Shown: positions 59,852 to 63,595, counted from the stretch's first letter. The stretch: 64,000 nucleotides of DNA from Escherichia coli (GCF_003334785.1 NZ_QOWV01000006.1), one strand, 5' to 3'. Made by a program: numbers and translations. Notes: generated by a model not told the origin, from the letters alone.

Positions 59852-61864
59852 TTAAGAGGCCAGCGTACCTTGCGGTGGTGCTTGCTCAAGTTGCGAAAGC
59901 GAGCAGTACAGCCGCCAGACAATTGCCGCCAGCTCACGGGCGGCAGGTTGATGATGACGGGCAAGGCTGTCGCAAATCCGCTGTAATTCTTCAAGTGTGG
60001 CCGCCAGTGATTTTTGCTGAACGCCACGCTCACTCATCACTCCCCGCAACAGTGAAATACAGTTATCCCGTACTCGCGATAACGGATCGGAACGCGATTC
60101 CCAGTCGCGCAATTGCCAGACAACATGAGAACAGTTCAGCAGCACTACACCCCAGCGTAATAACCAACGGCGAGCCAGCGCATCCTGGCTGTTACTCAAC
60201 TGACTGACGTGATGATAAGTGAGCGATTCAAATTCGCTTTCACTCAGTGTTGGATGGCGGCTTAGCTGATCGACAAAATCCCGGCGCAGCGCGCGAATAT
60301 GGCGGCGGCTTTTACGAGCATCCGATCCTGGACGCAGAATGGCGAACGCTAACCACGCCAACGCGACGCCAACGATTTTTGCCAGATTATCGTTAAGAAA
60401 ATCAGCAAAATCATACACCGGGGGATTAGTGACAGCGATAAAAGAACCCATAAAAACAATCAGTTGCCCCCACAATGCGGCAAATTTTGGCATCTGCAAT
60501 TTAAGAAGCTGCATTGTCGCCAGCAGTGGAAAGAGAAACAGTAAAAATTGCCACAGATCGCTAATCTGGACCATCAGACCAAATTTGACCACAAAGCTGA
60601 ATAGCGAAAGTAACACCAGCGTGCGCATCAGAAGTGACAACGACTTAAACGGTGCTGCGACGGCGGAGTAGAGTACGCAGCTAATTGCTGCCAGCGTTAA
60701 TGCATTGGCACCGGCATCCCATTGCGAAGCAATACTCCATGCGCCAATCATCATCAACGTACAAAATGTACGCAGCCCGCTCCACATAGCTTCGGCGTTA
60801 TCGGTATGACGAGCCAGGCCGGATGTCCGTGGGAGTCTGGTATGATCATCTACACCGCTTTGCAGACGATGTAATTCCTGACTACTTTGCAGATAAAGGC
60901 GGCAAAAATAACGTAGTCGCTGCCAGAAGGCGACGTGCCGATAGTCGGCGACGTTGGTCGGGCGTAGCGGGGCGATAATACGTGCGACGGTGTAAACATC
61001 TGTTTGCGAACTGGCGAGCGCCGTCAGCAACTGTTCGAGAATTTCTCGTGTGGCACCTGGCGGTGAGGGCCAGTTGAGCAACATACGTCGCAGGCTGGAG
61101 ATGACACTGGTCATACGTAATTGCTGGTGGAGCAGCGCATTAAGGCGCGCGTTTTGCTGGCGAAAACGATAGTGGCTCCAGAAAGCCTGGATACGCAGCA
61201 AATTCATGGTCAGTATCTGCCCAATCACCCCTTCATGTGCTGCACGAATGGCATCGGTTGTTTCAGGCTGCCAGAGTAAACTGGCATGTTCCAGTAATCG
61301 GGCGTGCATGTTTTTCAATGCGGTTAAAAGGGCAGTAGCATCGGAACTGCTCGGCAGGATCATCATCATCATGCCGCCGCACAAAATACCGACTATTACC
61401 TCGCAAACGCGCGCCTGAGCGATATCCCACAGCTGGCTGGCCTCAGTAATATTAACCATCGGAAAGGCGATGATGGCAGCCGTGTAGCCCGCCAGTTGAA
61501 ATGCATACGCGACGTTATTCGTGAAGTGCGCACAGGCCCAGGTACAAAAGCCAAGCCACGCCGACATGCTCAATAGAAAAAACCACGGCTCATTGAGCGT
61601 ATGCCCGGCAAGAAGCAGTGCCGCAATGGCTCCGAGCAAACTGCCAGCGATGCGTCCGAGGCTTTTGCTGATAACACCGCCAACGGTGGGAAAGCTAACC
61701 ACTGCAGCCGAGGTCATCGCCCAATAGGGTTCATCCAGATTTAAATAATAGGCAACCGTCAGCGCCAGACACATGGCAATGGTATTGCGTAACGCATAAC
61801 GCCATTGCGCCAGCGTGGCCCTGAACCAGGGCAAATTGCGCAAGGACCATGACGATGCGTTCAT
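59852..61864 (-). CDS. ydhK: Inner-membrane efflux protein, AaeB / fusaric-acid-resistance (FUSC) family
   Basis: ORF track 670 aa; hydrophobic N- and C-terminal blocks. Confidence 0.88.
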
Positions 61865-62721
61865 TATTGACCTACGGCAATGCTACAGGTGGTGCCCGAC
61901 ACCAACGTGACATCGCCTGGGACTTTATCCAGCGCAAAGCGGACGGGAACGCGTTGGGCGAGTCGAACCCAGGGGACGTTAGGTTTAACATCCGGAATAA
62001 GGCTTGAGTCACTTTCAACGCTCTGATCATAAATCGCCCGACCGATACTGGAAACGTGACCCTGTAACGTTTTGTTATCACTATAGAGGGTAATTTGTGC
62101 TGGTGCACCTTCGCGGATATGGCGCAACTTGGTTTCTTCAAAATAACCAATGACGTAAAACGAGTGGCTGTCGACAAGGGCAAACAGCGGTTTCCCGGTA
62201 TCAGCGTAATCGCCGATGCGGGTAGTAAGGTTAGTCACCCATCCACTCACCGGGGCGCGAATTTCCGTTTGCGCCAGTTGCCATTGTGCCTGTTTCAGCG
62301 TCGCCTGTGCGGCATCAACACTGGCCTGCATCGCTTTAACATTGAGGTTAGCGGTATCGAGTTCTTCGGCAGAAATAAAATTTTGTGAGAGATGACGACG
62401 ACGATTCGCTTCGTTATTGGCTTTTGCGAGGTCAGATTGCGCTTTCGCCAGCTGAGCCTGTGCGTTCAGCTCGGCGATCTGAAAGGGCGTTTTATCGATC
62501 GTGAGCAGAAGATCCCCCGCGTTAACCAGCTGGTTGTCTTTTATATTCAGCTCAACAATACGTCCCGACACCTGTGGGGTGATAGAAACCTGTTCTGCGC
62601 GTATTTTCCCGTCGCGTGTCCACGGAGATTGCATGTAATAATTCCACAGCCACCATCCGGCAAGAACCGCAACTACCGCTACAATGATTGTTGAGAAATA
62701 CTTAATTGTTTTAATTGACAT
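61864..62721 (-). CDS. ydhJ: Membrane fusion protein (HlyD/AaeA-like)
   Basis: ORF track 299 aa trimmed to ATG 62721..62719 (MSIKTIKYF...), 285 aa; stop overlaps ydhK start by 1 nt. Confidence 0.85.
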
Positions 62722-62723
62722 AG

Positions 62724-62960
62724 TTACCACGCAATCAGTATTGCCAGAGCAAGGCAAACGCAAATCGCAAACAGCGATAAATCCATTAACAAGGGATGCC
62801 AGATGTCACCGGCGTAGATCCAGCCACGAAGCAGGCGGTGTACGACAAGCCAGATGACGAATCCAAACGCGAATGCTTTGAAAAACGGAGGAAAGTAGAC
62901 GGACGCACCGAACACCAGATCTTGTAAGGGCAATCCTGTTGCATTGAGCATAAACTTCAC
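62724..62960 (-). CDS. ydhI: Small membrane protein (DUF1656, AaeX-like)
   Basis: ORF track 78 aa; hydrophobic; stop abuts ydhJ start. Confidence 0.85.
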
Positions 62961-63154
62961 AAAGTAGATTCCTTTACGACCGAATATATTGCGTTAGATT
63001 AATAAATATTCTTTAAGTGCGAAAAATTTACGCGCAATTTCTGAAAAATATGTCTGACGGTAACCAAATGCAGCAATACATTTGTTTTAGCAATACAATT
63101 GCTGCACACTATTCTAAAAGCCGCATAATATCTTAGCAAGCTAATTATAAGGAG

Positions 63155-63595
63155 ATGAAATTGGAATCGCCACTAGGTTCTGATCTGGCACGGTTGGTGC
63201 GCATATGGCGTGCTCTGATAGACCATCGCCTGAAACCGCTGGAGTTAACACAAACCCATTGGGTTACGTTACACAATATCCATCAGTTACCTCCAGACCA
63301 GTCGCAAATTCAACTGGCAAAAGCGATTGGCATCGAGCAGCCATCACTGGTCCGTACTCTGGACCAACTGGAAGAAAAAGGGTTAATTTCGCGTCAAACT
63401 TGTGCCAGCGATCGTCGGGCTAAACGTATTAAACTGACGGAAAAGGCAGAGCCGCTGATCAGCGAAATGGAAGCTGTTATTAACAAAACCCGCGCGGAAA
63501 TATTACATGGCATCTCCGCAGAGGAACTGGAGCAACTGATTACGCTCATCGCAAAACTTGAGCATAATATCATTGAGTTACAGGCCAAAGGGTGA
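63155..63595 (+). CDS. slyA: MarR-family transcriptional regulator SlyA
   Basis: ORF track 146 aa [41 protein letters not shown]...; exact start (ATG 63155 or a downstream TTG) uncertain. Confidence 0.92.

Follow-up and report, generated by a model that had tools for sequence, protein, structure and literature searches.

The segment 59852-63595 of the 64,000-nt stretch of Escherichia coli DNA analysed here (GCF_003334785.1, NZ_QOWV01000006.1; the whole stretch is referred to below as the window) can with high confidence be identified as the known slyA-ydhIJK locus of E. coli K-12, which encodes a pump paralogous to AaeXAB and, divergently from it, the regulator SlyA, which binds the spacer between the two transcription units. 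Positions 59700-64000 are 100% identical to E. coli K-12 MG1655 and are matched in all of the 5,426 complete E. coli genomes (5,426/5,426), with at least 80% of the segment covered in 5,409 of them. An earlier reading of the window, made from the sequence only, had named the genes slyA, ydhI, ydhJ and ydhK, likened the operon to the aromatic-acid efflux system AaeXAB and proposed that SlyA controls the export of an aromatic or organic acid. The genes it named are exactly those annotated by RefSeq, in agreement with the list of open reading frames (ORFs) and the raw sequence. The likeness to AaeXAB, the binding of SlyA, the ligand-relieved repression and the fusaric-acid phenotype are all already published, and as a discovery the locus adds little, because its main points are in print. 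New here are the fixed position of an exact SlyA operator even in species devoid of the pump, two candidate ydhI promoters placed over SlyA-type sites, and a structural model of YdhK that resembles the plant ALMT anion channels.

YdhIJK and the AaeXAB efflux system

The domain assignments proposed for the three pump proteins were borne out by Pfam. YdhK matches the FUSC family (PF04632, E = 5e-140) at model positions 1-658 of 660, i.e. over the full length. YdhJ combines HlyD_D23, Biotin_lipoyl_2 and HlyD_3 domains with a single N-terminal hydrophobic anchor (residues 8-26), and its relatives in the PDB include EmrA, AcrA and MacA. YdhI is a DUF1656 protein (E = 2e-14) with two hydrophobic segments. 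The best NCBIfam families are AaeB for YdhK, AaeA for YdhJ and AaeX for YdhI, but all three scores fall far under the equivalog cut-offs that define AaeXAB orthologs (YdhK/AaeB: 120 vs 870 bits, YdhJ/AaeA: 243 vs 400, YdhI/AaeX: 21 vs 82), and the three proteins are therefore to be regarded as paralogues. BLASTP searches against the K-12 proteins aligned YdhK with AaeB (24% over 521 aa), YdhJ with AaeA (41% over 282 aa) and YdhI with AaeX (33% over 51 aa), and the true aaeXAB operon is found elsewhere in the same K-12 genome.

The ydhIJK and aaeXAB (yhcRQP) operons share the gene order (a DUF1656 small protein, a membrane-fusion protein and a FUSC/ArAE-type inner-membrane protein), the tight packing of the genes and the presence of a divergently transcribed regulator. 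They differ in the class of this regulator, AaeR being a LysR-type activator while SlyA is a MarR-type protein that acts as repressor or anti-silencer, in the gene junctions (the aaeXAB genes stand 5 and 7 nt apart, those of ydhIJK are 2 nt apart at one junction and overlap by 1 nt at the other), and in that the substrates of ydhIJK are known in part only. Thus, a full-length FUSC protein, an anchored lipoyl/beta-barrel adaptor and the packed order with DUF1656 first place ydhIJK among the FUSC/ArAE-type operons, while the scores under the equivalog cut-offs and the lack of a divergent LysR-type activator set it apart from the AaeXAB orthologues. As judged from these comparisons, ydhIJK is a paralogue of aaeXAB with a like build under another class of regulator. 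The parallel drawn by the sequence-only reading therefore holds at the level of protein families, pairwise alignments, gene order and divergent regulator, and the homology of YdhJ to AaeA and of YdhK to AaeB has been stated explicitly by Will et al. 2025 (PMC12506092).

A FUSC inner-membrane protein, a membrane-fusion protein and a small DUF protein are also combined in FuaABC from Stenotrophomonas maltophilia and in Bucl8-FusCDE from Burkholderia, which confer resistance to fusaric acid and are induced by aromatic carboxylates (PMC7682875). These systems differ from ydhIJK in possessing their own outer-membrane factor gene and another regulator. No outer-membrane factor gene is annotated at the ydhIJK locus and none is seen there as an ORF, the flanks being occupied by sodC and by slyA/slyB; ydhIJK hence lacks the component that marks the tetrapartite pumps of the Fus type, and the term "tripartite", which had been applied to it, is justified by the count of three genes only. 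Of the translational linkage proposed for the operon, the 1-nt overlap of ydhJ and ydhK is confirmed (TAATG at 61862-61866), while ydhI and ydhJ, thought to abut, are separated by a 2-nt gap (TAA-CT-ATG, 62726..62719).

Control by SlyA and export phenotypes

The regulator itself is identified beyond its family: the NCBIfam SlyA equivalog is matched with 277 bits against a cut-off of 120, and solved SlyA structures (3Q5F, 3DEU and 4AIH in the PDB) are found with E = 1.9e-79. In an electrophoretic mobility shift assay (EMSA), E. coli SlyA was shown to bind a 200-bp slyA-ydhI fragment (Curran et al. 2017, PMC5797941), which corresponds to 62961-63160 in the window. The hypothesis of the sequence-only reading has in effect been tested at the orthologous slyA-ydhIJK locus of Salmonella Typhimurium, where the repression exerted by SlyA in vitro amounts to about 19-fold for ydhI and about 5-fold for slyA and is relieved by salicylate in both cases (PMC6401476). 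A salicylate-sensitive SlyA site with 9/12 matches to the consensus was footprinted there close to position -35 relative to the start of ydhI; ydhIJK mutants exhibit late growth in fusaric acid, while slyA mutants grow better (PMC6401476). RNA sequencing in Salmonella placed ydhIJK among the SlyA-repressed genes, and the authors of that study remark that the physiological function of ydhIJK "remains to be determined" (Will et al. 2025, PMC12506092).

The proposal of SlyA-controlled export of an aromatic acid is thus found in print, through the EMSA in E. coli and the repression, its relief by salicylate and the fusaric-acid phenotype in Salmonella. As for the experiments suggested along with it, the binding and footprinting of SlyA on the spacer have published counterparts in both genera (EMSA in E. 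coli, footprint in Salmonella), while a test of the ydhIJK mutants in fusaric acid, of the kind envisaged as determinations of minimal inhibitory concentrations, gave a phenotype in Salmonella only. The expression of ydhIJK in slyA strains has likewise been measured in both genera, with repression in Salmonella, a 2.2-fold rise upon SlyA overproduction in E. coli and no change in the E. coli slyA deletion.

Such an arrangement is comparable to other MarR-family regulators with a divergent efflux operon, e.g. EmrR/MprA with emrAB: in both cases a winged-helix MarR-family dimer, a palindromic operator in the spacer and release by phenolic ligands accompany a linked pump, whose adaptor is EmrA-like (YdhJ in slyA-ydhIJK). 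SlyA differs from EmrR/MprA in that its main role is the pleiotropic anti-silencing of H-NS, and in that its linkage to the pump has been lost repeatedly outside Enterobacteriaceae.

Linkage of slyA and ydhIJK in Enterobacterales

When representative genomes of species were scanned once for a degenerate pattern of the slyA coding sequence, 120 loci from Enterobacterales were obtained, which form the comparative set used below. In 90 of them ydhI is divergent from slyA, 19 extend 600 bp or more upstream of slyA and lack ydhI, and the remaining 11 are too short to judge. The linkage is found in 54/54 Enterobacteriaceae and in 36/55 members of other families, including Yersinia, Serratia, Rahnella, Rouxiella, many Pantoea and some Erwinia, while the pump has been lost from Pectobacterium, Dickeya, Brenneria, Lonsdalea, Providencia, Moellerella, Mixta, Regiella and some Erwinia and Pantoea. 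Intact full-length YdhK ORFs (665-681 aa) were recovered from 40 other species. Published counts describe the slyA-ydhJK linkage as near complete in the enteric cluster and put it at 26-33% within those other clusters in which any linkage is seen (PMC6401476). Our comparative set agrees with this picture of repeated loss, with a slightly higher retention beyond the enteric cluster, probably a consequence of sampling species and not genera.

Yersinia ruckeri retains only weak partial matches to YdhI and YdhJ and no YdhK, and the loci of Pantoea stewartii and P. ananatis have no start codon at the aligned ydhI start and are devoid of the SlyA operator box 1 described below. To judge by their sequences, these remnants of ydhIJK look like intermediate stages of pump loss.

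The divergent control region

The region between ydhI and slyA (Table 1) had been described as a shared control region of 194 bp (62961-63154), on the assumption that slyA starts with the ATG at 63155. Its position between divergent genes is correct, while its length is 200 bp, since the start annotated by RefSeq is the TTG 6 nt downstream, in agreement with the "unusual UUG start codon" reported for slyA (PMC5797941). The Shine-Dalgarno sequence AGGAG (63150-63154) directly adjoins the ATG and leaves a spacing of 6 nt to the TTG. At the position of the TTG, 90 of the 91 aligned Enterobacterales loci have a start codon (70 TTG, 16 ATG and 4 GTG), and only 56 of the 91 contain the ATG further upstream. 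Both the Shine-Dalgarno spacing and the conservation of the start codon support TTG 63161 as the start of slyA.

Table 1. Genes and putative control elements of the slyA-ydhIJK locus (positions in the window)
Feature	Position	Strand	Description	Basis
ydhK	59852-61864	-	670 aa, inner-membrane FUSC/ArAE-type protein, paralogue of AaeB	ORF and RefSeq
ydhJ	61864-62721	-	285 aa, membrane-fusion (periplasmic adaptor) protein, paralogue of AaeA	ORF and RefSeq
ydhI	62724-62960	-	78 aa, DUF1656 small membrane protein, AaeX-like, GTG start	ORF and RefSeq
Divergent control region ydhI/slyA	62961-63160	.	200 bp, AT-rich, ~36% GC	
SlyA box 2 (candidate)	62994-63005	+	TTAGATTAATAA (TTAN6TAA), 9/12 to consensus on the minus strand; 161 bp upstream of slyA	
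Candidate sigma-E-type ydhI promoter	63020..62994	-	GCACTT-N16-TCTAA; -10 inside box 2; predicted start ~62987, ~27 nt upstream of the ydhI GTG	
Candidate SlyA site	63087-63098	+	TTAGCAATACAA, 9/12 to consensus; overlaps the second copy of a 13-nt direct repeat	
Candidate sigma-70-type ydhI promoter	63139..63111	-	TTGCTA-17-TAGAAT; -35 hexamer inside box 1; predicted start ~63104	Consensus scan
SlyA box 1	63133-63144	+	Exact consensus palindrome TTAGCAAGCTAA, centre 22.5 bp upstream of the slyA TTG	
slyA	63161-63595	+	144 aa, MarR-family regulator, TTG start	RefSeq
Likely slyA terminator	63606-63633	+	12-bp GC-rich hairpin followed by a T-run, between convergent slyA and slyB	

Curran et al. 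listed two candidate SlyA sites, TTAGCAAGCTAA at 22 bp and TTAGATTAATAA at 161 bp upstream of slyA (PMC5797941), which correspond to boxes 1 and 2 in Table 1. The 64-kb window has a single copy of the exact palindrome TTAGCAAGCTAA, at 63133-63144. Among the 90 ydhI-linked loci box 1 is exact in 53, has one mismatch in 30 and two mismatches in 5, and in all but one of the 88 linked loci with the site (87/88) the distance between its centre and the slyA start is 21.5-23.5 bp. Box 2 was found in Escherichia only among the 91 loci. The half of the spacer next to ydhI evolves fast and is little conserved from genus to genus, as was also reported by Will et al. 2019 (PMC6401476).

The middle of the spacer contains a 13-nt direct repeat, AGCAATACA(T/A)TTG (63072-63084 and 63089-63101), which sits in a perfect 9-nt inverted repeat, TGCAGCAAT/ATTGCTGCA (63069-63077 and 63098-63106). 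In the two other correctly aligned Escherichia loci the region 63069-63106 is almost unchanged, with one substitution in the first copy.

Two candidate promoters of ydhI were identified. The first, of the sigma-70 type, shares sequence with the region in which the slyA promoter has to be located. The corresponding pattern NTGCTA-N16-18-TANNNT is found in 79 of 90 ydhI-linked species and in 5 of 19 unlinked ones, a difference that is confounded by phylogeny and by the overlap with the slyA promoter (Fisher p = 2e-7, and p = 4e-4 within non-Enterobacteriaceae, both uncorrected for kinship). The second, which was compared with the sigma-E promoter type GGAACTT-N16-TCAAA, belongs to a pattern (GNACTT-N16-TCNAA) with 2 matches in the 64-kb window against 0.49 expected; the other match (26584-26610, +), in the interval between the minus-strand genes lpp and pykF, precedes no gene on the plus strand and was treated as chance. 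The published assignment of ydhIJK to sigma-E is a point missed by the sequence-only reading. Lacoux et al. 2020 treat PydhIJK as a sigma-E-dependent start site; upon sigma-E induction the ydhIJK RNA rose 20-fold, while the changes in initiation were weak, and the authors suggested stabilisation of the transcript instead (PMC7075262). Together, the two candidates suggest two layers of control, i.e. an ancestral operator shared by back-to-back promoters and a lineage-specific proximal promoter in E. coli, at which SlyA and the polymerase with sigma-E might compete.

In 9 loci from several genera of Enterobacteriaceae that have no E. coli sigma-E-like promoter, a motif GGAAACGGCAG(T/A/C)C is found ~35-45 nt upstream of ydhI; it fits neither the sigma-E nor the sigma-70 consensus.

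Predicted fold of YdhK

A PDB sequence search with YdhK returned no match, and the FUSC-family exporters have no relative detectable by sequence among the solved structures. An AlphaFold2 model of YdhK built on 36 sequences (predicted local distance difference test 81, predicted template-modelling (TM) score 0.72) exhibits two consecutive units, each with about 6 membrane helices followed by about 6 cytoplasmic helices (6+6 / 6+6). A Foldseek search of the PDB with this model identified ALMT1 and ALMT9 with a probability of 0.99-1.00, all other matches having probabilities of 0.25 or lower; ~360-390 columns were aligned, about half of YdhK. Each unit of YdhK is thus predicted to resemble, with moderate similarity, one protomer of an ALMT anion channel.

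The match has to be weighed against the modest values of the similarity itself (E 0.02-0.2, TM score 0.40-0.51 on the target, identity 13-16%) and against the lack of an internal repeat in YdhK by BLASTP of the N-terminal against the C-terminal half or by hhalign of the two half-alignments. An internal duplication detectable by sequence was accordingly rejected, and it is the helix pattern of the model alone that hints at a repeat. ALMTs are homodimeric channels that are not known to work with a periplasmic adaptor. AtALMT1 and AtALMT9 from plants share with each half of the modelled YdhK the six membrane helices and the helical cytoplasmic domain; YdhK would differ from them as a fused pseudo-dimer that works with YdhJ.

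The mechanism of FUSC exporters would bear on a large family of bacterial organic-acid exporters and on the tolerance of bioproduction strains to aromatic acids.

A control model and its alternatives

The model proposed here starts from the pump genes, which encode the exporter YdhK in the inner membrane, its anchored periplasmic adaptor YdhJ and the two-helix DUF1656 protein YdhI, and from the published binding of SlyA, a salicylate-sensitive MarR-family dimer, to the 200-bp spacer. Box 1 would lie near the likely start of slyA transcription and within the -35 element of the sigma-70-like ydhI promoter, so that a single operator could close the slyA and ydhI promoters alike, and the two would open together once SlyA is released by aromatic carboxylates. 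The organic acid would leave as an anion, down the membrane potential, through the ALMT-like pseudo-dimer of YdhK. The common operator would follow the classical logic of a MarR-type regulator linked to a pump, which has been experimentally shown in Salmonella. E. coli would in addition have gained the ydhI-proximal sigma-E-type promoter, whose -10 element lies over the second SlyA-like site, and which would tie the pump to envelope stress.

Several results weigh against this model for E. coli. In chemostat cultures of E. coli K-12 the deletion of slyA changed no transcript, and overproduction of SlyA raised the ydhIJK transcript 2.2-fold, a rise and not a repression (PMC5797941). Because of these two results, repression of ydhIJK by SlyA is shown for Salmonella only, and the sign of the effect differs between the two organisms. 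Export of an aromatic acid is likewise published for the Salmonella orthologue and for fusaric acid only, the sole substrate demonstrated for ydhIJK. The 9/12 site footprinted in Salmonella is not obviously equal to box 1. Of the 19 species without ydhIJK, 16 still have box 1 at its usual position, which ties its conservation to slyA autoregulation; alone it cannot be read as pump control, and as a proof of such control it was rejected. Both candidate ydhI promoters are consensus matches only, and with them the overlap of the conserved palindrome with the ydhI -35 element. Promoter-like hits in the region are not above their frequency in shuffled sequences, and the promoter scan alone was therefore rejected as evidence. 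The sigma-E-type -35 element is of the K-12 type only, being degenerate in E. albertii and other Escherichia species. The loci of E. coli and Salmonella also differ in the ydhI-proximal half of the spacer, E. coli slyA is reportedly less expressed from its own promoter than that of Salmonella, and E. coli has the sigma-E start site (PMC7075262).

Perhaps SlyA of E. coli K-12 acts on ydhIJK not as a classical repressor but as an anti-silencer, which displaces H-NS from the AT-rich spacer and thereby raises expression? This possibility, which we consider rather doubtful, would account for the rise upon overproduction; anti-silencing is the mode of most E. coli SlyA targets, one of the data sets compared by Curran et al. 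marks ydhIJK as bound by H-NS (PMC5797941), and the GC content of the spacer is ~36%. However, the 2.2-fold effect is small and was obtained with multicopy slyA only, the deletion of slyA was without effect, the Salmonella operon is repressed in vivo and also in a purified system free of H-NS, and the overlap of a perfect operator with candidate promoter elements fits occlusion.

Somewhat less probable, and in our view unlikely, is that the adjacency of slyA and ydhIJK is mostly a historical relic in E. coli, with box 1 serving slyA autoregulation only and ydhIJK being run chiefly by sigma-E in response to envelope stress. The persistence of box 1 in species without the pump, the fast evolution of the ydhI-proximal half of the spacer, the 20-fold increase of ydhIJK RNA upon sigma-E induction and the null effect of the slyA deletion would all be expected in such a case. 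On the other hand, the changes in initiation at the sigma-E site were weak and the authors of that study suggested stabilisation of the transcript, the sigma-E -35 element is restricted to the K-12 type, SlyA does bind the slyA-ydhI fragment, and the linkage has been kept in every one of the sampled Enterobacteriaceae.

That YdhIJK is not an aromatic-acid pump at all, but serves to move a different anion or metabolite, or is a channel that has no partner in the outer membrane, the fusaric-acid effect being incidental, is improbable. In favour of this view are the scores far under the AaeXAB ortholog cut-offs, the ALMT-like, channel-type predicted fold, the locus without an outer-membrane gene and the opinion of Will et al. 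2025, who see no clear function and consider an endogenous compound more likely (PMC12506092). Against it stand a fusaric-acid phenotype that follows the genotypes at ydhIJK and slyA as expected, the handling of aromatic carboxylates by the characterised relatives AaeAB, FuaABC and the Burkholderia Fus pump, and the sensing of salicylate and benzoate by SlyA (PMC6401476).

A more far-reaching version of the proposed model, which we put forward as speculative and unlikely to hold as a whole, would join the structural and the regulatory observations. YdhK would have the ALMT fold in the form of a fused pseudo-dimer, as would by extension AaeB and further FUSC proteins, and it would pass aromatic carboxylate anions down the membrane potential; YdhJ and YdhI would be accessory proteins. 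Escherichia would have been rewired so that SlyA and the sigma-E polymerase compete at the proximal promoter (62994-63020), while the ancestral operator (63133-63144) would govern slyA and the distal ydhI promoter, and the pump might export an endogenous ligand of SlyA. If true, this would constitute a feedback loop linking envelope stress, aromatic metabolites and H-NS anti-silencing.

Neighbouring genes and minor observations

According to RefSeq, the locus is bordered by sodC (+) beyond ydhK and by slyB (-) downstream of slyA. The hairpin between the convergent slyA and slyB genes (Table 1) is probably a terminator common to both, possibly a bidirectional one. At the other end, the stop codons of the convergent sodC (59849-59851, +) and ydhK (59852-59854, -) adjoin with zero spacer, and the junction has no terminator-like hairpin, so both transcripts must overrun each other. 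The sequence of this junction (59844-59855), TTAAGTAATTAA, fits the loose SlyA pattern TTAN6TAA by coincidence; it was rejected as a SlyA site, as it consists of the adjoining stop codons.

In some E. coli isolates (e.g. NZ_CP091756.1, 2365-4535) an insertion of the IS3 family or of ISApl1 splits ydhJ into two pseudogene fragments, which indicates that the pump is dispensable in those strains.

An Rfam scan found no RNA family within the slyA-ydhIJK locus. Elsewhere in the window, matches above the gathering score were found at 13433-13540, 19144-19204, 37196-37477 and 46069-46459; these are RprA (-), RydB (+), two tRNAs (-) with an overlapping match to the antisense RNA HPnc0260, and STnc550 (+).

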